Shown here: piece by piece, positions 9,820 through 58,959 of the stretch
How the letters are laid out: each line of letters opens with the position of its first letter
How positions within the stretch are numbered: the first letter of the stretch is position 1
Assembly (NCBI GenBank): GCA_035275065.1
Contig: DATENM010000023.1
Coordinates: forward strand, 71,215-135,214
From: Blastocatellia bacterium
Lineage (GTDB): Bacteria > Acidobacteriota > Blastocatellia > UBA7656
Direction: 5' to 3'
DNA: 64,000 bases
Position numbers and translations under genes: made by a program
Notes under the pieces: model-generated
Told to the model about the DNA's origin: nothing
Seen by the model: only the letters and a program-made list of their open reading frames with translations
The model's database searches: none

Positions 9820-11712
9820 ATGAGCACCATGACGATGGCGCCGCAAACGGGCGGCCACCGCTGCAACTGCGGATGTTCCGACTGTATGGGTGAGTGCTGC
9901 GAGTTGGAGTATCTGGTGCAGCCGCGGTTCTTTTGTGGTCAGCTGTTGACGGACCAGGATCTCAACGCCCTGCTTGAATGGGTGAAAGGCAAAACGGCGC
10001 TCGCGCGCTACCGTGACGGCTGGGGAGTGGCCTGCGGACTTGATGTGCATTGCAGCGCGGGGCCGGGCAAGGAAGGGTTCGTGTCGGTGACTCCGGGATA
10101 TGCGATAGACTGCTGTGGCAACGACATCATCGTTCGCGAAGAGGCCGAGATAGACCTGTCGAAATACTGCCTTGTCGATGAAGGCCCTTGCAGGGACCGG
10201 GCTCCGATGTCCGCGCAAAGATCGGCAGCGCAATCGGGAACAACGCCCGGCACTCCGGGGCCGAATCTTAGTTTCGGCGGATGGGAGATTCAACAAAGCG
10301 AGGTCCAGGCGGTTGACCTTTTCATCGGTTACGCTGAGACCGCAAGCGACGCGCGAAACGCCCTTGCCAAAAGAGCCTGCGACGCCGTCGAAGTATGCGA
10401 ATACACGCGGACGCACGAGGGATATCATCTCTACGCGAAGAAGGCCGAACACTGCGACCATTCCGCTGAACGACGCGCGCTCGATTGGGAAGAAGAGTAC
10501 GGAAGAAAGCTCAAAGAACTCTTCAATGATCTTCAAGCCATCTCCACCATTGGCAATGCAAAGCAGAGGGTTGAGAGGTTGAGCCAGTGGCTCACGAGCC
10601 ACGCGCTCCACAGCTTCAGCTTCATCCGAGAATGGCTGTGCGAACTTCAAAGACTGAACGAACCGACGGCCGGCTGGTTCGAGAAGATGATCTTCTGGTT
10701 GGTGCAGGACTGGCGCAGCCATTACCTCGGGTGTGAATGTTACGGCTGCGGCCCCGACACGGGCGTGCATCTGGCGAGGGTATGGCTTTGGCGGCGAAAG
10801 GACGAGCGCGGCAGGGCTTACTGCAAGGTAATATATATCAATCCCTATCCGCCGTTCCGCCGCCCGCTTCAGAGGGAATGCTGGCCCGGCAGGCCCGGTT
10901 ATTTAAACGTCGCGCGCTTCATCTGGCAGCCTACCGACTACGTCGTAGGAGAGTTGAGCAGTCTTGGCTTTGGCAGTATTTCGACGGCGCCGTTTACATA
11001 TGGAAACCTCGAAGGGTTGCGCACGAAGTTTGCCGATGATCATCTGTTCGTGCCGCGCGGGGATGGCACGAGAGCCCAAAGATTGATCATCTATTCATAC
11101 CAGGACATCTGCCAGCAGAGCCGCGTGGTGCGTTTCGGGGTCGAAACGGCGCCCATCAGAACAGATGTAAACGTGAACGCTGCATTGACCAAAGAAGATG
11201 TGAAGCCGGTGAATCAAACAACCACAGGCACAGCCGCAAGCTCAGGCTCTACACCAACCACAGCCAACGCGGAGGATGCAAAGCCGGCTACCGGGCCGGG
11301 CTTAGAGCCGCCCGCTTCACCGACTACGCCCCTTGCTGATCCGACAGCGGGACCGCCGGTAAACTCAAACGGTCCGGCCTTAATTGCAAATAACAGCCCG
11401 GCCGCTGAGATAGTCATAGCGCCGGATGTCCCAATCACGCCAGCCGTTGCAAATCCGGTTGGCAGGACGGCAATTGACCCGGACACCCTTCCGCCAACCC
11501 ACCCCCTGCTTGAGATTCAGCAAGTGAAGGGTATCGGGCCCGTTTACGCGATGCGCCTCGAAGAGGCTGGCATTATGAACCTGCGAGACCTGTCCAAGAG
11601 CAATCCGGCCACAGTGAAGCAGGCGCTGGCCGGCGGCCCGCCGAATCGCCCGGCCGAAGATATTGTCCAGGAAGCCGCAGAGCGGATCAGAAAGTTGAAG
11701 GAAGGAACTTAA
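9820..11712 (+). CDS. Paralog 2 of four: shared N-terminal domain, Cys-rich N-terminus, Pro/Thr-rich linker and a C-terminal HhH-like motif
   Basis: 630 aa, starting MSTMTMAPQ after a GGAAGGAG RBS. It has a CNCGCSDCMGECC cluster and the shared domain (PRFFCGQLLTDQDL...YRDGWGVACGLDV...VTPGYAIDCCGNDIIV). A P/T/A-rich stretch follows. Near the C-terminus is LLEIQQVKGIGPVYAMRLEEAGIMNLRDL. Confidence 0.55.
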   Translation: MSTMTMAPQTGGHRCNCGCSDCMGECCELEYLVQPRFFCGQLLTDQDLNALLEWVKGKTALARYRDGWGVACGLDVHCSAGPGKEGFVSVTPGYAIDCCGNDIIVREEAEIDLSKYCLVDEGPCRDRAPMSAQRSAAQSGTTPGTPGPNLSFGGWEIQQSEVQAVDLFIGYAETASDARNALAKRACDAVEVCEYTRTHEGYHLYAKKAEHCDHSAERRALDWEEEYGRKLKELFNDLQAISTIGNAKQRVERLSQWLTSHALHSFSFIREWLCELQRLNEPTAGWFEKMIFWLVQDWRSHYLGCECYGCGPDTGVHLARVWLWRRKDERGRAYCKVIYINPYPPFRRPLQRECWPGRPGYLNVARFIWQPTDYVVGELSSLGFGSISTAPFTYGNLEGLRTKFADDHLFVPRGDGTRAQRLIIYSYQDICQQSRVVRFGVETAPIRTDVNVNAALTKEDVKPVNQTTTGTAASSGSTPTTANAEDAKPATGPGLEPPASPTTPLADPTAGPPVNSNGPALIANNSPAAEIVIAPDVPITPAVANPVGRTAIDPDTLPPTHPLLEIQQVKGIGPVYAMRLEEAGIMNLRDLSKSNPATVKQALAGGPPNRPAEDIVQEAAERIRKLKEGT

Positions 11713-29712: not shown

Positions 29713-29849
29713 TGTGACCACGACGGGTCTTTTCAGATCGTTTCCTCACCATAGGAAGCATTAGCGGGGGGCAAAGTTGACACAATGCCTGTTCGTGGTT
29801 GCTGGATCACGCACGGATTCAATCAACGATACCTGAAGGAGTAATCAGT

Positions 29850-30374
29850 ATGAGACGAAAAACTTTCTTGCTTATTGTAGTTGCAATCGTGGTCGGCGTT
29901 GTCGCTTACAAGGCCCCCGCGTCTGGACAAACTGATGGGGAGGCCGCACCAGTCTTCGTAACTGAAATCCCCGCCGGATACCGCGACTGGAGGTTCATCT
30001 CTGTCGCACACGAGGAAGGCAACCTCAACAGTTTCGCTTCCGTTTTGGGCAACGACATCGCGATCAAGGCCTACCGCAAAGGCAAGCTTCCATTCCCAGA
30101 CGGCGCCATTATTGCAGCCCTACACTACCGCTTCGTCCCGTCTGCGGAAAACAATAAAGCTTTTGGGCGTGATCAATCGTTCGTCGCCGGGGCGCCGACG
30201 AACGTGCAGTTTATGATCAAGAACTCGAAGAAGTATGCCGCTACTGGAGGTTGGGGGTTCGGTCACTTCAACAGCGACGGCAAACCAGTTGACGACGCAT
30301 TTATGAAGACTTGCTTTCCTTGTCACCAGAAGATGAAAGAGAGCGATCTGGTCTTCACCCGTTACGCGCCTTGA
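29850..30374 (+). CDS. Cytochrome P460-family haem protein with a signal peptide (paralog 1)
   Basis: MRRKTFLLIVVAIV... is a signal peptide. A C-terminal CFPCH (CXXCH) motif is followed by ...DLVFTRYAP. It is paralogous to 41172-41738. Confidence 0.7.
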   Translation: MRRKTFLLIVVAIVVGVVAYKAPASGQTDGEAAPVFVTEIPAGYRDWRFISVAHEEGNLNSFASVLGNDIAIKAYRKGKLPFPDGAIIAALHYRFVPSAENNKAFGRDQSFVAGAPTNVQFMIKNSKKYAATGGWGFGHFNSDGKPVDDAFMKTCFPCHQKMKESDLVFTRYAP

Positions 30375-41029: not shown

Positions 41030-41145
41030 CTACCACAATCAAGGTATCTCGGTTGCCGCCAATAGTGGTAGCAAAAAACTATTCCTTCTCGTGATGTGTT
41101 CTCGCTCCAGATTGCTTATGGTGTTGATCAGCGCGACGGACGATT
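41030..41145 (+). repeat. Intergenic element copy C, subtype B/C, upstream of the second cytochrome P460 gene
   Basis: CTACCACAATCAAGGTATCTCGGTTGCCGCCAATAGTGGTAGCAAAAAACTATTCCTTCTCGTGATGTGTTCTCGCTCCAGAT. Aligned directly to copy B. Confidence 0.75.
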
Positions 41146-41171
41146 GGTTCGTCTTGGCAGGAGGAACGTTT

Positions 41172-41738
41172 ATGAGACAGAAGATTTTCTTGCTGGTTGC
41201 AGTTGCAGCCCTGACCGCTGTGATCGCCTATATGGCACCCGCATCTGGACAAGCCGATGGAGAGGCCGCACCAATCTACGGGATTAAGCTCCCTGCGGGA
41301 TATCGCGATTGGCGCATGATCTCCGTCGCCCACGTTGGGGAACCTCTGAACGATCTACGCGTCAAACTGGGCAACGATATAGCGATCAAGGCTTATCAAG
41401 AGGGAAAGCCATTTCCTGACGGCGCGATTATTGCCCGGCTCGCCTATCGAGCGGTCACGTCGGAGGAAAACAACCTAGTCTTTCGCGCGGCTGCCGAGCG
41501 ACAAGGTCTCCCGCCTGAACAGGTGACGAAGCTCTTAGCCGGGTCGTTGGTGGCCGGCCCCGCGACCAACGTTCAGTTCATGGTCAAGGACTCAAAAAAA
41601 TATGCCGCGACCGGCGGCTGGGGCTTCGCTCAATTCACCAATGATAAACCTGACGGCGCGGCGCTGCACAAGACCTGCTATGCCTGCCACGCGCCCGCCA
41701 AAGATCACGACTTTGTCTTCACTCGTTACGCGCCTTAA
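41172..41738 (+). CDS. Cytochrome P460-family haem protein with a signal peptide (paralog 2)
   Basis: MRQKIFLLVAVAALTAV is a signal peptide. It has CYACH (CXXCH) followed by ...DFVFTRYAP at the C-terminus. About 55% identical to 29850-30374. Confidence 0.7.
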   Translation: MRQKIFLLVAVAALTAVIAYMAPASGQADGEAAPIYGIKLPAGYRDWRMISVAHVGEPLNDLRVKLGNDIAIKAYQEGKPFPDGAIIARLAYRAVTSEENNLVFRAAAERQGLPPEQVTKLLAGSLVAGPATNVQFMVKDSKKYAATGGWGFAQFTNDKPDGAALHKTCYACHAPAKDHDFVFTRYAP

Positions 41739-43328: not shown

Positions 43329-44363
43329 ATGGCAACGACAAAAGCCGCAACAGCGCCAATGAAGGTGGCGCAGGTTCCTACGCCGGGAGCCGATTTCCAG
43401 ATCGTCGAACGCGAGATTCCCACCCCCGACGCGGGACAGGTGCGCATCAAGGTGCAGGCATGCGGCGTCTGCCACAGCGATGTGCTCACGAAGGACGGCG
43501 GGTTGCCTGGCATTCAGTATCCCCGCGTGCCGGGACACGAAGTCGTGGGCATCATTGATGAAGTAGGTGCCGGCGTTTCCGAGTGGACAGTGGGACAGCG
43601 CGTCGGCGTCGGCTGGCATGGCGGCTACGACGGCACGTGCAGCGCGTGTCGGCGCGGAGATTTTATCAATTGCCGGAATATGAAAATTGCGGGCATCAGC
43701 TATGACGGCGGCTATCAGGAGTACATGATCGCTCCCGCTGAAGCTCTGGCGGCGATACCGGAAAGTCTGAGCGACACAGAAGCCGCGCCGCTGCTCTGCG
43801 CAGGGGTCACCACCTTCAACGCGCTGCGACACAGCGGCGCGTCGCCGGGCGATTTGGTGGCGGTACAGGGCATCGGTGGCTTGGGCCATCTCGGCATTCA
43901 ATTCGCCAACAAATTCGGCTACAGGGTCGCGGCCATCGGGCGTGGGCCGGAAAACGCCGCGCTCGCAAAGCAACTCGGAGCGGCTGTGTATATAGACAGC
44001 CGGGCGGCGAACGCGGCAGAGGAGCTGCAAAAGCTGGGCGGCGCAAAGGTAATTCTGGCGACGGCGCCAAGCTCGAAAGCAATGTCTGAGGTGATTGACG
44101 GTCTTGGGCCGAACGGCAAGCTAATGGTCGTGGGCGCGGACTTCACACCGATTGAAGTCACGCCGCCACAGCTCATTTTTGGAAGTCGAACGATTCAGGG
44201 CTGGGCCTCGGGGACACCGATGGATTCTGAGGATACCCTCCGCTTCGCCGAACTGACCGGCGTTCGCCCGATGATTGAAACCTATCCGCTGGAAAGGGCG
44301 GCGGAGGCTTACGCGCGGATGCTGAGCGGTGACGCGCAGTTCCGCGTCGTGCTAACGATGTGA
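43329..44363 (+). CDS. Zinc-dependent alcohol dehydrogenase (MDR family)
   Basis: GVCHSDV catalytic-zinc motif, a structural-zinc Cys cluster (CSACRRGDFINC) and the GIGGLGH cofactor motif. 344 aa. Confidence 0.85.
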   Translation: MATTKAATAPMKVAQVPTPGADFQIVEREIPTPDAGQVRIKVQACGVCHSDVLTKDGGLPGIQYPRVPGHEVVGIIDEVGAGVSEWTVGQRVGVGWHGGYDGTCSACRRGDFINCRNMKIAGISYDGGYQEYMIAPAEALAAIPESLSDTEAAPLLCAGVTTFNALRHSGASPGDLVAVQGIGGLGHLGIQFANKFGYRVAAIGRGPENAALAKQLGAAVYIDSRAANAAEELQKLGGAKVILATAPSSKAMSEVIDGLGPNGKLMVVGADFTPIEVTPPQLIFGSRTIQGWASGTPMDSEDTLRFAELTGVRPMIETYPLERAAEAYARMLSGDAQFRVVLTM

Positions 44364-46970: not shown

Positions 46971-49900
46971 ATGAAAATGAGAATGCGTTCTGTACTTCTT
47001 ATGCTAGGCAGTGTGGCGATGCTCTGCGTTTTGGCCGCCACTAGCAAGGCGCAGACCAGCGGTGAGATCACCGGTCTGGTAACGGATTCATCGGGCGCGG
47101 CGGTGACGGGCGCTACCGTGACGGTCACCAACAAAGCGACTGGCGCGACGCGCAAAGCGACGACCAACAGCGAAGGACTTTATACCTTCCCATCGCTGCT
47201 GCCCGGCGACTACGAATTGAAAGTCGAGCAAACCGGCTTCAAGGTGGCGCGGCTCGATGACATCAAGCTCGAAGTTCAGCAGACGGCGCGACTGGATGTG
47301 ACGATGGAAGTCGGCGCGGTCGGCGAGATGGTGACGATTAGCGGCAGTGGCGTGCTGCTCAACACCGAAAACTCGACAGTCGGCACCGTGATTGAAAACA
47401 AGATGGTGACGGAATTGCCGCTGAATGGTCGGCAATATCTGAATCTCGTCGCGCTTTCGCCCAACGCCAACGTGCTGGCGCCTGCCGCGGGGCAAGCGGG
47501 CGCCCGTCAGGGCGGCGAGCGCGCCCAGCAAGCGATCTCCGCCGGCGGGCAGCGCATCTTCTTCGATTACTACACGCTCGACGGCGTCAACAACATGGAC
47601 GTGAACTTCAACACCTACGTCGCCCTGCCGTCCATTGACGCGATTCAGGAGTTCAAGGTTCAAATCGGTGTTTATCCGGCGGAGTATGGGCACCAGAGCA
47701 CGCAAGTGAACGTGCTCACCAAGTCGGGGGGCAACGCCTACCACGGCGCGCTCTTTGAATTTCTGCGCAACGACGCGCTGGACGCCAAGCAGTACCAGTT
47801 CACCACCGCCAAGCCGAAGAATCCGTTCAAGTGGAATGACTTCGGCTACGAGTTTGACGGGCCTGTGCGCATCCCCCGCCTCTTCAACGGGCAGGACAGA
47901 CTATTTTTTATGTCCAACTACGAGGCGCTGCGCCGCCGGCAGAGCGTGTTGAACACCTTTACCGTACCGACGTCCAGGATGTTTGCCGGCGACTTCAGCG
48001 AGTTGCTGCCCTCGACGATCATTTACGATCCGAACACGGGACAGCCTTTTCCGGGCAACATCATTCCCACGAACCGGCTCGACCCGATCTCGCTGAAGTT
48101 TTTGAAATACTACAATTCCGCCAGTGTGCTCAGAACCAACAACTACGCGCAGACCAGTTCGCAACCCTTCAACCGGGACGGCTTTGTTCTCAGACTCGAT
48201 TTCATCGAGTCGCCGAAGTCGCAATGGATGGGCCGGTACAACTGGGGCGACGAAAACACCTCCGCGCAAGGTCTCAATCTCGCGGGGACGAAGGTGCTGA
48301 CCAACTACGAACAATACACAGGGTCCAACACGCGGACCTTGACTCCCAACCTCGTCAACGACGCACGGTTCGGCTATACGCGTTTCTTCAACTCGCTTGG
48401 CACCCTGAGCGCCGGCAGTCTGGATGTAATTTCCGACATCGGCATTCCGAACCAGAATCCCGGCGATCCGATCACCTGGGGGATTCCGAACGTTGTATTT
48501 AACGGGGGCGGGTTCACCGCAATCGGCGACGCCAACGACGGCCCATTCGCAATTGACAACAATAGTCTGCAATTCGTTGATAAGTTGTCGTGGATACATG
48601 GCAAGCACACCTTCGCCTTCGGGGGCGAGTACAGCCGGCAAAACTTCAATCAGGTGGGCAACCAGTTCTCACGCGGCGTGTTTACCTTCCAAGCGGGCGC
48701 GACAAAGAATCCTGTGAATGGAACCGGCGGCTTCTCCTTCGCCGAATTCCTGCTCGGGAAACTCTTCGTATCGACCAATGCGGCTGCGGTCGCCAATGCG
48801 AAATTCCAGCGCAACGTCTTCCACACGTTTATTGACGACACCTGGAAGGTCACTCCCAAGCTGACACTGTCGCTGGGCTTGCGATACGAATTGACGCCGC
48901 CCTTCACCAATACGCTGGGCAACTATTTCACGGTGAAGATACCGAAGATCGAGTTTATTGCTAATGCTCCGCAAGCCGACTGGCCATTCTTCGTGCGGCA
49001 GGGCGATGGCTGCACGGATCCGTATAAGGGCCTGGCTATCCATTGGACCAGCACGAAGGCGGTCTGTGGCGGCGGTCTGAACAACAACCTCCGACAGACC
49101 AAATACAAGAACTTCGCGCCGCGCATCGGCATCGCCTACGCGCTCAATGACAAGACCGTGATCCGTACCGGCTTTGGCATCTTCTACATGCAGGACATCG
49201 CCAATGCCGAGTACTTCGACATGGCCCGCAATATCGCGGCCCGCGTCGATCTCACCACGACGCCCGCACTTCCGATAACCTGGAACAATGCGATTCCCGG
49301 CGGCGGCGGCACCGTCGTTCAGGTGCCGCCGCCGTTTGCGTGGGCAGTCGCTTACGACCACGCGACGCCTTACACCATGCAGTACCTGTTGAGCGTGCAA
49401 CGGCAGCTCGGCAACAACTGGCTAGTGGAAGTGGGCTATCTGGGGTCGCAAAGCCGGCACCTCTACGGCTTCCAAAACATCAACCAGGCGCTGCCGGGCC
49501 CCTTAAGTAGCATCAACTCGCGCCGACCGTTTGCCAACTTCGGGGTGCTCTCCTATGTCAATGATGGGTTCAACGCCAGCTACAACGCCGGCAGCGTGAA
49601 GCTCACACGGCGCTTCGGCCAGGGGCTTAGCTTGAACACGAATTACACCTATGCCAAGTCGATTGACAATGCCAGCGGCACCCGCACACAGGGCCTCGAC
49701 ACACTCTTCCCGCAAGACAGCAGTTGCCTGGCTTGCGAGCGCGGGCTGTCGTCGTTCGATGTTCGCCATCGCTGGGTTCTCGGCGCCGTCTATGAACTGC
49801 CGATAGGCAAAGGCAAGCCGCTGGGCATCAACAACTCAATCGCCGACGCGTTTGTCGGCGGCTGGCAGTTGAGCACGAACACGACGATCCAGAGCGGCGT

Positions 49901-50619: not shown

Positions 50620-51909
50620 ATGTCTAAACTAAGAGGACTGCGGTGGTGGATGATCGGGCTGATTATGCTCGGCTCGGTCATCAACTACTTGACGCGCAGC
50701 ACGCTCTCGGTCGCCGCGCCGACGCTGCTCGAAGACCTGAAGATCGGCACTGAGCAGTATTCCTGGGTCGTCGGCACGTTTCAAGGCGCGATCATGCTGC
50801 AACCGCTCTGCGGTTACGTGCTTGATGTAATTGGGCTGAAGCGTGGCTACGCGCTATTCGCTGCCGCCTGGTCGCTCATCAGCATGGGGCACGGACTGGC
50901 GCACAACTGGCAAACGCTCGCCGGCCTGCGCGGGCTGCTGGGGTTGGCCGAAGGCTCGGCGAACCCCGCTGGGATGAAGGCAACGGCGGAGTGGTTCCCT
51001 GCCAATGAGCGCGGGCTCGCAGGCGGCGTCTACAACATCGGCGCTTCGTTCGGCTCGATGCTCGCGCCGCCGCTGGTCGCGTGGGCGATCTTGCAATATA
51101 ACTGGCAATCGGCCTTCGTGATGACAGGGGCGTTGGGCTTGGTCTGGGTAGCCGTGTGGCTGTGGCTCTATCACCCACCGGAGAAACACCCCTCGCTTTC
51201 CTCAGCCGAGTTCGACTACATCGCCGCCGGGCAGGAGAAGCATTTGCAGCACGACGGCACGCGGCCCGCGATGCTCGCGCTGCTCAGGCGGCGAAATTTC
51301 TGGGGCATCGCGCTGCCGCGTTTTCTAGCTGACCCGGCCTGGGGAACGCTGACATTCTGGATGCCGCTCTACCTCGCGCAGACGCGCGGCTGGGATTTGA
51401 AGCAGATCGCGCTCTTCGCGTGGCTGCCGTTTCTGGCGGCAGACATCGGCTGCGTTTTTGGCGGCACGTTCAGCCTGTGGTTGCAAAAGTACTGGCGCAT
51501 CAGCCTCATTGACGCGCGGCGCGCGGCCTTCACGCTCGGCGCTGTTATGATGCTTGGTGTCGGCTTCGTCGGCTTTGTACAAAGCCCATATGCCGCGATT
51601 GCGCTACTTAGCCTCGCCGGCTTCGCCCATCAGACGTTGTCCGTAACCGTGATCACGATGTCGTCGGATCTGTTCAAGAAGAACGAAGTCGCGACGGTCG
51701 CAGGGATGGCGGGCACGTTCGGCAACGCCGGGCTGCTGATCTTTTCGCTGCTGATCGGCGCGCTGGTGACGAAGATCGGCTACGCGCCGTTTTTCATTTG
51801 TCTCGGCTTGCTTGATGTCATCGGCGCGGTGATCTTGTGGACCGTGGTCAGAACGGATGTGAAGGCAGCCGAAGCGGTCGGGGAAGCAGCCGAAGCGGTC
51901 GGGATTTGA
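50620..51909 (+). CDS. MFS transporter (anion:cation symporter / hexuronate-like subfamily)
   Basis: 429 aa with about 12 predicted TM helices and the motif GLRGLLGLAEGSANPAG. Confidence 0.8.
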   Translation: MSKLRGLRWWMIGLIMLGSVINYLTRSTLSVAAPTLLEDLKIGTEQYSWVVGTFQGAIMLQPLCGYVLDVIGLKRGYALFAAAWSLISMGHGLAHNWQTLAGLRGLLGLAEGSANPAGMKATAEWFPANERGLAGGVYNIGASFGSMLAPPLVAWAILQYNWQSAFVMTGALGLVWVAVWLWLYHPPEKHPSLSSAEFDYIAAGQEKHLQHDGTRPAMLALLRRRNFWGIALPRFLADPAWGTLTFWMPLYLAQTRGWDLKQIALFAWLPFLAADIGCVFGGTFSLWLQKYWRISLIDARRAAFTLGAVMMLGVGFVGFVQSPYAAIALLSLAGFAHQTLSVTVITMSSDLFKKNEVATVAGMAGTFGNAGLLIFSLLIGALVTKIGYAPFFICLGLLDVIGAVILWTVVRTDVKAAEAVGEAAEAVGI

Positions 51910-53585: not shown

Positions 53586-54488
53586 ATGACACCTACCAGA
53601 TTCTTTCGCGCCATAATGAAAAAAATCCTGACGCTAGCCATCTTCATCCTGGTGATAAGCATAACTGGCGCTCCGTCTGCCCAGTCCCCTGCTGATTGGA
53701 CCGAACCATTTCCGCCCTTCAAGATCGCCGGGAATCTCTACTATGTTGGAAGCCGTGGCCTCGCCAACTATCTGATCACGACGCCGCAGGGACACATCCT
53801 GATCAACAGCGATCTTGAGGAGAACGTCCCGCTTATCCGCGCGAGCGTCGAGAGGCTCGGATTCAAGTTCACAGACATCAAGGTCCTGCTCATCAGCCAC
53901 GCGCACTGGGATCACGACGCTGCGAGCGACACCATCAAGAAGCTGACCGGCGCGAAGTACATGGTTATGGATACGGACGTGCCGGTCGTTGAATCGGGCG
54001 GCAAGGCGGACTTTCAGTATGGCAACGATGCAACGACCTTCTACAAGCCCACGAAGGTAGATCGCGTGCTGCACGATGGCGATGAGGTCAAGCTAGGGAA
54101 CACCGTACTGATGGCGCACCTCACGCCCGGCCACACGAAGGGTTGTACGACATGGACGATGAAGGTGCAGGAGGCAGGTAAGACCTACAACGTTGTGATC
54201 ATCGGCAGTCCCAACGTGAATCCCGGCTACCGGCTGGTGAACAACTCGGCCTATCCGCAGATTGCGGCGGATTACGAAAAGACCTTCCGCGTCTTGAAGT
54301 CCTTGCCGTGTGACATTTTTCTCGGTGCGCATGGCAACTACTTCGATCTCGAAACGAAATACGCGCGGCTGAAAGAGGTCGGCCTTGCCGCCTTCGTTGA
54401 TCCTGTGGGCTACAAGAATTACGTGGCCGACAGAGAAGAAACTTTCAAGGTCGAACTCGCAAAGCAAAGAGCCGCTCTGCCAAGATGA
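53586..54488 (+). CDS. Subclass B3 metallo-beta-lactamase-fold hydrolase with a signal peptide
   Basis: HAHWDH is a B3-type HxHxDH zinc motif. GHTKGCTTW and GAHG follow downstream. The signal peptide is MKKILTLAIFILVISI. Preceded by an AGAGAGGA RBS. Confidence 0.7.
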   Translation: MTPTRFFRAIMKKILTLAIFILVISITGAPSAQSPADWTEPFPPFKIAGNLYYVGSRGLANYLITTPQGHILINSDLEENVPLIRASVERLGFKFTDIKVLLISHAHWDHDAASDTIKKLTGAKYMVMDTDVPVVESGGKADFQYGNDATTFYKPTKVDRVLHDGDEVKLGNTVLMAHLTPGHTKGCTTWTMKVQEAGKTYNVVIIGSPNVNPGYRLVNNSAYPQIAADYEKTFRVLKSLPCDIFLGAHGNYFDLETKYARLKEVGLAAFVDPVGYKNYVADREETFKVELAKQRAALPR

Positions 54489-54571
54489 CCCATGAATGGA
54501 TGGGGTGGTATAACAACGTGGTCGGCGCGCGGAGCGGATTTCTGATGGTGACTTTGCGCCAGGGGTAAGGT

Positions 54572-55247
54572 ATGTCGAACGATTCGGGAGGTGAGCGAGA
54601 GTTGAGTTCTGAGGCCGTCTTCGACTCGGATGTCGAAAATGTTTGTCGGGTCGTGACGGCAGTGCCGGGGCCGCGCGGACAACTGCCCATCACGGCGGAA
54701 GACCTGATTGGCCGTCCCAGCGGCGACATCTTCGGCTGGACACAGGATGTCGGGATGGGTTGGAATCCAGCGCAGCTACGACGTCCCGAAGTCCTGATCC
54801 TGAGCACGCAGGGCGGCATACGCCTGCCCGACGGCACGCCCCTCGCGCTCGGCTATCATACGGGACATTACGAAGTCGGATTGCTGATGCAGGCCGCCGC
54901 CGAAGAGTTACGCCGGCAAGGCTGCATCCCTTTCGCGGGCTACTGCACAGACTATCGGCAAGGTGCGTGACGGCGATCTGATCCGCGTCGTAATAGACCC
55001 GATCAAGCTGGAGGGAAGCATTGATCTGGTTGAAGCGCGCGGGCCGAATGACTACGTGCCGGCTGAGGCGATGTTAGCGGCAAGGATGCCGCGCCCTGAC
55101 TTACGGCCTGACGCGGCTCTGCCCGCCGACACGAGACTGTGGGCGGCGCTCCAGAATGCGAGCGGAGGCCCGTGGCGTGGCAGCGTCTATGATGTTGACC
55201 GAATCGTTCGCGTCATCGAAGCGGGACTGCGCGCGCTGGACTCTTAA
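54572..55247 (+). pseudogene. Xylonate / L-arabinonate dehydratase (IlvD/EDD family, YjhG/YagF-like) with a large internal deletion
   Basis: The N-terminal 132 aa (...[34 protein letters not shown]...[14 protein letters not shown]) match the YjhG N-terminus. The 94-aa frame 54963-55247 ([10 protein letters not shown]...[29 protein letters not shown]) matches the YjhG C-terminus. The middle ~400 aa, which carry the catalytic core, are absent, and the two pieces are in different frames. Confidence 0.65.
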
Positions 55248-55293
55248 CCGGGCGCTTGCTCAAGCAGCGGCTAATCAATTGGAGAATGCGACA

Positions 55294-56124
55294 GTGAAAA
55301 TCTACCGAGTAAAAGATGGCGTCATCATTCAAGACGGCACGAGTGCTTACTCATTCGAGACTGACTGGGACGAGCTAATCAACCGCGAAGACCTCTCCGG
55401 TTACTTGCACAATCTACTCGGCACTGCCGGCTTGCCTTCAGTGGGCAGCGATTTCAGCGAAAAGATTCTGCCGCCGATTGTCAGCCAGGAAGTCTGGGCG
55501 GCGGGTGTCACTTACTACCGAAGCCGCGCGGCGCGCATTGAGGAATCGCAAGATGCGGGCGGCGGCGACTTCTACGACCGCGTCTACATGGCGGAGCGCC
55601 CGGAGCTCTTCTTCAAGGCGACCGCGCACCGTGTCGCAGGCCACGGCGGGGCTGTGCGCATACGCCAGGATTCACACTGGAACGTGCCCGAACCGGAACT
55701 CACGCTCGTCGTCACGCGCACGGGTAAGATCGTCGGCTACACCATCGGCAACGACATGAGTTCGCGCGACATAGAGGGCGCGAACCCGCTCTACCTGCCG
55801 CAGGCCAAAGTCTATGACCGTAGCTGCGCGCTCGGCCCTTGCATCCTCGTCGCGGAAGAACGGCTTCCCGCCGCGACCGAAACCAAGCTGCGCATCGGGC
55901 GCGCAGGCCGTACGGTCTTCGCGGGGGAGACGACGCTCGCGCAGCTCAAGCGCACGCCTGAGTCGCTGGTCGAATTTCTCTTTCGCGACAACTCGTTCCC
56001 GCAAGGCTGCTTCCTGCTGACGGGTACGGGTATCGTCCCGCCCGACGATTTCACTTTGCAGCCGGGCGACGAGATCAGCATCACCATCGAACCCATCGGC
56101 ACGCTCGCGAGCGTCGTCGAATAG
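55294..56124 (+). CDS. Fumarylacetoacetate-hydrolase-family protein, probable 2-keto-3-deoxy-xylonate/arabinonate dehydratase (Weimberg pathway)
   Basis: FAH-fold motifs: ...[17 protein letters not shown]...GTGIVPPDD... A GTG start with a GGAGAA RBS is preferred over the upstream ATG at 55156, which would overlap the pseudogene. Confidence 0.6.
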
Positions 56125-56149
56125 CCGCCGCGCGCAGGAGTTCTAACAT

Positions 56150-58959
<2,810 letters not shown>

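Follow-up and report, generated by a model that had tools for sequence, protein, structure and literature searches.

A probable dead remnant of a YjhG/YagF-family pentonate dehydratase gene in a hemicellulose-utilisation locus of a Blastocatellia bacterium

In E. coli, dehydratase operons occur with a sugar-acid transporter (PMC13279387). The window analysed here, a 64,000-nucleotide stretch of DNA from a Blastocatellia bacterium, shares this arrangement in that a dehydratase gene lies in a locus with a sugar-acid MFS transporter, and the E. coli YjhG/YagF family (TIGR03432, within the IlvD/EDD superfamily) is the sole family model that matches the remnants of this gene, which align to the two ends of the model. 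It differs from E. coli in that 441 of the 665 codons of the gene are deleted and its frame is broken, leaving no functional family member, and in that the partner genes encode an FAH-type dehydratase and an aldehyde dehydrogenase (ALDH), a route to alpha-ketoglutarate. E. coli uses the YjhH and YagE aldolases instead (the Dahms route).

The Weimberg operon xylXABCD of Caulobacter crescentus is a second parallel, because the window likewise has adjacent genes for three successive reactions, those of an IlvD/EDD dehydratase (XylD), an FAH dehydratase (XylX) and an aldehyde dehydrogenase (XylA, a KGSADH). In contrast, no XylB (xylose dehydrogenase) or XylC (lactonase) was found among the scanned window ORFs, the dehydratase step is deleted, and the window dehydratase belongs to the YjhG/YagF branch, with 5OYN being a distant match to its intact orthologue in L088 (E = 3e-29). 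The FAH protein of the window is most similar to KdaD of Sulfolobus solfataricus (2Q18), including the metal-binding E-x-E and D, whereas the window locus is bacterial. The archaeal arabinonate dehydratase is a member of the enolase superfamily and is not known to belong to IlvD/EDD.

Bacterial pseudogenes undergo deletional decay, a piecemeal removal by non-homologous or microhomology deletions. The relatives of the window resemble this general process, as they span the range from intact through frameshifted and partially deleted to nearly completely lost genes, and they are unusual only in the number of lesions of one three-gene module among close relatives. The window remnant is ordinary biology of a known enzyme family, and the finding opens no long-standing question.

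Anatomy of the deletion and identity of the remnants

The window is identical to positions 134,761-198,760 of the 223,015-bp short-read metagenome contig k141_1497779 (ENA ERZ27257050), window position 54953 being position 189,713 of that contig. Its nearest GTDB representative is 87% identical, and the closest genomes are uncultured Blastocatellia/Pyrinomonadaceae (Acidobacteriota). The reference for the alignments was L088, the 118-kb metagenome contig JADMIO011200074.1, which is the closest fully intact syntenic relative (88.8% nucleotide identity) and has the gene order MFS, GH43, esterase, metallo-beta-lactamase (MBL), dehydratase, FAH, ALDH, esterase, GH51. The L088 dehydratase gene is one uninterrupted ORF of 665 codons, and its product reaches 1060 bits with TIGR03432, a model of 640 positions for the YjhG/YagF family D-xylonate dehydratase with a cut-off of 808 bits. 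The features of the window considered below are:

50620..51909, plus strand: MFS transporter, D-galactonate/hexuronate (sugar-acid) type (TIGR00893, PF07690)
53589..54488, plus strand: secreted FEZ-1-like subclass B3 metallo-beta-lactamase (NCBIfam B3 equivalog)
53589-53663: esterase/MBL fusion, with its junction near 53618-53622
54572..54952, plus strand: 5′ remnant of the YjhG/YagF dehydratase gene, start codon and codons 1-127
54953..54953, plus strand: deletion junction, a single T (alignments to L088, L002, L003 and L001)
54953..54970, plus strand: out-of-frame read-through YRQGA to a premature TGA at 54968-54970 (sequence, ORF list)
54954..55247, plus strand: 3′ remnant, codons 569-665 and the original stop (TIGR03432, orthologue identity)
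55297..56124, plus strand: intact FAH-family 2-keto-3-deoxy-pentonate dehydratase gene, KdaD/XylX-like (PF01557)
56150..57736, plus strand: intact aldehyde dehydrogenase gene, candidate alpha-ketoglutarate semialdehyde (KGSA) dehydrogenase (PF00171)

The ORF list places two ORFs in different frames at 54572-54970 (132 aa) and 54963-55247 (94 aa), and the window has no single uninterrupted ORF of about 655-665 codons for the dehydratase. In the NCBIfam profile search, the 132-aa ORF matches TIGR03432 model positions 1-114 (E = 7e-46, 156.5 bits) and the 94-aa ORF matches positions 555-638 (E = 1e-24, 86.4 bits); these E-values are far outside what chance would give, although both are fragment scores below the 808-bit cut-off, one from each model end. 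With a 665-aa orthologue as the query, tblastn aligns residues 1-127 at 54572-54952 (89.8% amino acid identity) and residues 569-665 at 54954-55244 (87.6% identity). Descent from the TIGR03432 family is indicated by this 88-90% amino acid identity to the ends of orthologues, together with the same gene order.

The DNA alignment pairs window positions 54952 and 54954 with L088 positions 6381 and 7705, so that a single nucleotide stands in place of 1,323 bp. The window is therefore 1,322 bp (3×440+2) shorter than L088 here, and codons 128-568 of 665 are gone. An intact allele at this junction would run ...TGCACAGAC straight into CCTTGCGACGG... The filler T at 54953 is unlike both flanks of the intact gene, which have a C in each case, and the junction shows no microhomology of note. 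The 5′ remnant, colinear with L088, L001, L002 and L003, ends with ...IPFAGYCTD, directly before the PCDGRTQG motif; it keeps the original ATG, and reading from this ATG stops after five foreign codons. The 3′ remnant is shifted to frame +1 with respect to the 5′ remnant and has the C-terminus ...RALDS followed by the stop. A single non-homologous (illegitimate) deletion has thus taken out codons 128-568 and left a 1-nt filler, and the shift of frame at the junction makes the 3′ part unreadable from the original start.

Neither Pfam nor PDB sequence searches gave a match for either fragment by itself, leaving NCBIfam TIGR03432 as the only model that recognises them; this silence is explained by residues 1-104 and 591-665, the bulk of what is retained, lying outside the region that aligns with IlvD/DHAD. 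An exact-protein look-up of the 132-aa ORF gave no match. The gene caller's start is a TTG that yields a 122-aa product, on record solely for the window's own contig. Rfam and promoter/terminator scans gave nothing relevant.

The alignment of the intact L088 protein to plant DHAD (8HS0/5ZE4) covers residues 105-590, and it places ATCDKG (the CDK motif), GGGCQF and FSGVSSG all within the deleted residues 128-568. In DHAD and L-arabinonate dehydratase, these motifs provide the Fe-S and Mg ligands and the catalytic serine. On this alignment, the IlvD/EDD catalytic core is absent from the window. The sequence-only reading had described YjhG/YagF-like ends of about 130 and 95 aa in different frames, an internal deletion of about 1.2-1.3 kb, and a missing Fe-S and catalytic core; the first is confirmed by TIGR03432 and tblastn, the second agrees with the 1,323 bp replaced by 1 nt in comparison to L088, and the third is borne out by the deletion of CDK, of the cysteine in GGGCQF and of the serine region FSGVSSG.

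Overall, the region is homologous to a functional gene, its lesion is disabling, and syntenic orthologues are intact, as expected of a pseudogene created by deletion; the pseudogene call follows from the loss of 441 codons and the frameshift, and has no other basis. The region is very probably all that is left of a now dead YjhG/YagF-family D-xylonate (pentonate) dehydratase gene, the product of a recent and genuine deletion. Judged from its sequence, the locus is unable to make an enzyme that converts xylonate to 2-keto-3-deoxy-xylonate and, its core missing, xylonate dehydratase activity is not expected from it.

Partner genes and pathway context

Both downstream partners are full length. 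The FAH protein has S. solfataricus 2-keto-3-deoxy-D-arabinonate dehydratase (2Q18) as its closest solved structure (E = 7e-58), keeps the metal ligands (PEPEL, containing E-x-E, and the D164-equivalent), and aligns with its orthologues over 275 of 275 residues, with a dN/dS of 0.20-0.24. The structural match, the ligands and the full length together are those of the FAH dehydratase of a Weimberg-type cluster. The ALDH is 3V4C/1EYY-like (E = 1e-139 or better), contains the EMGSANP and GQFCTCPG motifs, and aligns over 528 of 528 residues at 92% identity with L088 and L002 (dN/dS 0.11-0.19). Its matches to the 2,5-dioxovalerate/KGSA dehydrogenase NCBIfam models (E = 5e-30 and 1e-27) fall far short of the cut-offs of these models; its assignment as a candidate KGSA dehydrogenase comes from the gene order dehydratase-FAH-ALDH, which recurs in other Acidobacteriota (L012, L013 and L065).

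The MFS protein at 50620-51909 matches TIGR00893 with an E-value of 5e-94 and 315 bits, under the 395-bit cut-off, and is likely the entry point for pentonate. The surrounding locus is one of arabinoxylan degradation, with GH43, GH51, GH3, feruloyl-esterase-like proteins and a TonB-type receptor. The gene content suggests a module that starts from imported pentonate and leads to alpha-ketoglutarate, and not a complete Weimberg cluster of five steps. In particular, Pfam/NCBIfam scans of 37 of the 58 window ORFs of at least 180 aa (the rest mostly overlap the scanned ones in other frames or strands) detected no pentose dehydrogenase or lactonase, with GFO/SDR xylose dehydrogenases and SMP30/SGL lactonases both absent among the 37. 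A Zn-ADH encoded at 43329-44363 resembles Ahr/AdhP; its gene is located some 10 kb upstream of the remnant and outside the glycoside-hydrolase/transporter locus, which starts at 46971. Nor is the MBL (53589-54488) a lactonase; it is a beta-lactamase of subclass B3, FEZ-like, scoring 340 bits against the B3 equivalog cut-off of 240 and matching PDB 5W90 (FEZ-1) with an E-value of 8e-108. The MBL gene is conserved directly upstream of the dehydratase gene in the clade; it is thus an environmental gene of the carbapenemase type in an acidobacterium.

The locus has undergone a second deletion. Between GH43 and MBL, L001, L002, L003 and L088 keep a PF00756 esterase gene (about 1.1 kb) that the window has lost, and the first 11 codons of this gene (MTPTRFFRAIM) are fused in frame to the start of the MBL (KKILTLA...) at an ATG microhomology. 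The description of the locus as an otherwise intact Weimberg-type cluster is therefore an overstatement: the FAH dehydratase and aldehyde dehydrogenase are intact, as had been proposed and as the full-length alignments and retained key residues confirm, whereas no dehydrogenase or lactonase was found in the scanned ORFs and the esterase gene is also lost. In place of the functional pentonate dehydratase of such a cluster, the locus has a pseudogene.

A tblastn search of the 64-kb window revealed no paralog of the dehydratase (no other significant match), and no other type of dehydratase occurs among the 37 scanned ORFs of at least 180 aa. FAH and ALDH without a dehydratase may reflect a dead pathway, or one compensated elsewhere in the genome by a paralog or a dehydratase of another type. 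The two intact genes may not yet have decayed, or may be kept for another source of 2-keto-3-deoxy-pentonate or KGSA. For annotation, the window dehydratase locus should be called a pseudogene; for metabolic reconstruction, intact FAH and ALDH genes are no ground for crediting the organism with an oxidative route from xylonate to alpha-ketoglutarate.

Independent lesions among close relatives

The window was compared with contigs from five other samples or assemblies that have 85-94% nucleotide identity to it. The states of the module are:

L001: dehydratase residues 139-477 lost, in frame (341-codon deletion)
L002: dehydratase frameshifted in a GCGCGC run, with the same read-through peptide on a second contig, P0003
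L003: dehydratase intact; FAH and ALDH lost and replaced by about 300 bp of repeat-like DNA
L170 (327-kb contig): dehydratase reduced to codons 1-79 and the last three, an 82-codon ORF (roughly codons 80-660 deleted)
L170, 7491-10343: FAH through the downstream esterase deleted, with GH43 present as fragments of 133 and 171 bp
L088 and P0232: dehydratase intact

Window included, contigs from six samples or assemblies carry at least five different lesions of the module, and the conclusion that there are at least five independent lesions of the pentonate module among close relatives is solid. A systematic sequencing error at the GC repeat could account for the frameshift of L002. That one module is damaged in different ways in different relatives favours the reading that it is dispensable and being lost. 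The transporter/dehydratase/KdaD-like/KGSA dehydrogenase module is probably undergoing ongoing erosion in this Blastocatellia clade, and the window deletion would be one of several independent events in this erosion. The related contigs provide a compact natural example, in uncultured soil Acidobacteriota, of a catabolic module within a hemicellulose-utilisation locus eroded by deletions; literature searches found no report on this Blastocatellia clade.

The frequency of damage has to be read with the search in mind. The protein homologue search returned no match longer than about 1.75 times the query length, and such a length filter causes short queries to enrich for truncated or internally deleted relatives and to hide full-length ones. 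L001, L002 and L170 were found through this search, which is biased to short proteins and therefore makes damaged alleles look commoner in the clade than they are. Two locus scans without a protein-length filter recovered the clade members L003 and L088, and the dehydratase is intact in both. More broadly, the gene is full length in one frame in 72 of the 74 complete loci from GTDB representative genomes, and also in 50 metagenome loci. The left breakpoints that were found fall at residues 80, 105, 122, 122, 127, 138, 138, 195 and 241; their clustering is suggestive, and a deletion hot-spot at residues 122-138 is not claimed, as the search was biased to proteins that keep residues 1-127.

Two of these loci have further features. 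In L003, a Blastocatellia MAG092 contig, the DNA at 10770-11086 is rich in short GC-rich inverted repeats (e.g. GCCCGCTTTGCGGGC and GCCCGCGAAGCGGGC) and could be a small mobile or REP-like element. L170 represents the most eroded state of the locus, with GH51, GH3 and a fucosidase still present.

Repeated destruction of the module might also be adaptive loss rather than neutral decay, with the window deletion perhaps tied to recombination; we regard this as unlikely. Possible drivers would be a toxic 2-keto-3-deoxy-pentonate, the burden of an Fe-S enzyme, or replacement of the module by another pentose route.

Age, origin and reality of the deletion

The remnants have a dN/dS of 0.14-0.29 against L001, L002 and L003, compared to 0.07-0.24 for neighbouring genes. 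For the 5′ remnant, the comparison with L001 gives 13.5 nonsynonymous and 14.5 synonymous changes (dN/dS 0.29), with fewer nonsynonymous changes than expected under neutrality (binomial p = 0.004). The remnants carry no positive signature of neutral decay, their dN/dS being no higher than that of the neighbours. As this similarity implies that most of the divergence accumulated under selection, the deletion appears to be young compared with the split from sister lineages, from which the window differs by roughly 5-12%.

A deletion that looks very recent, with no extra nonsynonymous changes, could also be one allele among others, real but segregating in a population that also holds an intact gene and keeps the pathway. 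Metagenome contigs report the dominant path only, and close relatives (L088 and P0232) have intact alleles; however, the contigs on record include none with an intact allele from the strain background of the window, the nearest alleles being 88-94% identical. Such a polymorphism is compatible with the main explanation, from which it differs solely in allele frequency, and it has a rather low probability.

The origin of the deletion may be connected to recombination. Across 53700-56987, the mismatch rate between the window and L001 is 4.8% on the left side of the junction and 11.5% on the right side (p = 4e-11), and relatedness switches from 95% to 88.5% no more than about 100 bp away from the junction. 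On the left flank, each of the two has the other as its nearest relative; right of the junction, they are not sisters. These alignments point to a recombination boundary that would coincide with the deletions in the window and in L001; the deletion could have arisen during the recombination event, or the two could coincide by chance.

A nested origin, in which an ancestral in-frame deletion of the L001 type (139-477) was followed by a deletion of about 305 bp across the junction, would fit left breakpoints of the window and L001 that are only 33 bp apart, as well as their close relationship on the left flank (4.8% versus 11.5% on the right, p = 4e-11). It is nonetheless improbable. The shared ancestry that it needs is absent right of the junction, and the 5′ remnant's dN/dS of 0.29 against L001 is significantly below 1, implying that the gene was constrained for most of the time since the two lineages split.

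A repeat-mediated deletion was considered and rejected. L002 has a 10/11-nt direct repeat near both breakpoints (CTTTCGCGGGC / CTCTCGCGGGC, 1,327 bp apart); however, the junction lies outside this repeat, and the GC-rich gene has many repeats of this sort by chance. In the intact orthologues, there is no direct repeat at the breakpoints and the longest exact repeats (about 10-13 nt) are found elsewhere in the gene, which makes a repeat-collapse mis-assembly unlikely.

The same data bear on whether the genome has a full-length gene of which an assembler or a chimeric read skipped 1.3 kb. The window comes from a short-read metagenome contig (k141_1497779 of ERZ27257050) and its deleted allele is on record in that one contig only, as an artefact would be. 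In contrast, a collapse needs a shared repeat of about the k-mer length, and the orthologues offer at most about 13 nt of exact repeat; the junction carries a non-templated T; and relatives from other samples, including the 327-kb L170, bear their own different deletions in the same gene, so such deletions do occur in the clade. The second clean deletion in the same locus (the esterase/MBL fusion) likewise counts against mis-assembly. Further, the k141_ contig name suggests a MEGAHIT-type assembly at k=141, and the junction of such a de Bruijn contig would have to be present in real k-mers or reads. An artefact is very unlikely, and we infer from the sequence comparisons that the deletion is a real genomic event.

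Least credible of all is a functional remnant, in which the 132-aa N-terminal product, or "mini-YjhG" proteins that join N- and C-terminal parts in general, would have acquired a new role. In its favour, the original start codon is retained, the retained parts are largely family-specific extensions outside the core (residues 105-590), and other lineages have in-frame N+C fusions (P0036, P0037, P0126, P0121, P0008 and P0009/18). Against it, the two parts in the window do not share a frame, and the mini forms occur rarely and as singletons, with breakpoints varying from residue 80 to 241. P0037, the mini form that served as a query, has 73-77% identity to N-terminal fragments of ordinary dehydratase genes and 54-58% to the other mini forms. 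A "mini-YjhG" protein family was accordingly rejected, since rare singletons in distant lineages with varied breakpoints are best explained as independent accidents.

As observations in their own right, the in-frame mini forms of other lineages, at the loci L083 (8001-8504), L086 (1049-1582) and L087 (2534-3559) and in the proteins P0121, P0126 and P0009/P0018, consist of the first 105-241 residues of the dehydratase followed by its last 50-160, and several left breakpoints fall at residues 122-138. L083 lies within a xylose/xylonate locus with a GntP permease, FAH, an SGL lactonase, LacI and an XylA-like protein.

Elsewhere in the window, positions 571 to about 24100 (plus strand) hold a phage-tail-like or extracellular contractile injection system gene cluster, which encodes a CIS tube protein, baseplate V/OB and baseplate J proteins, a P2-I-like protein and an AAA ATPase with a winged-helix domain, together with several large ORFs (up to 1,494 aa) without a Pfam match. 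Two cytochrome P460 paralogues are located at 29799-30374 and 41091-41738 (plus strand), about 11 kb apart, with two-component regulators between them.
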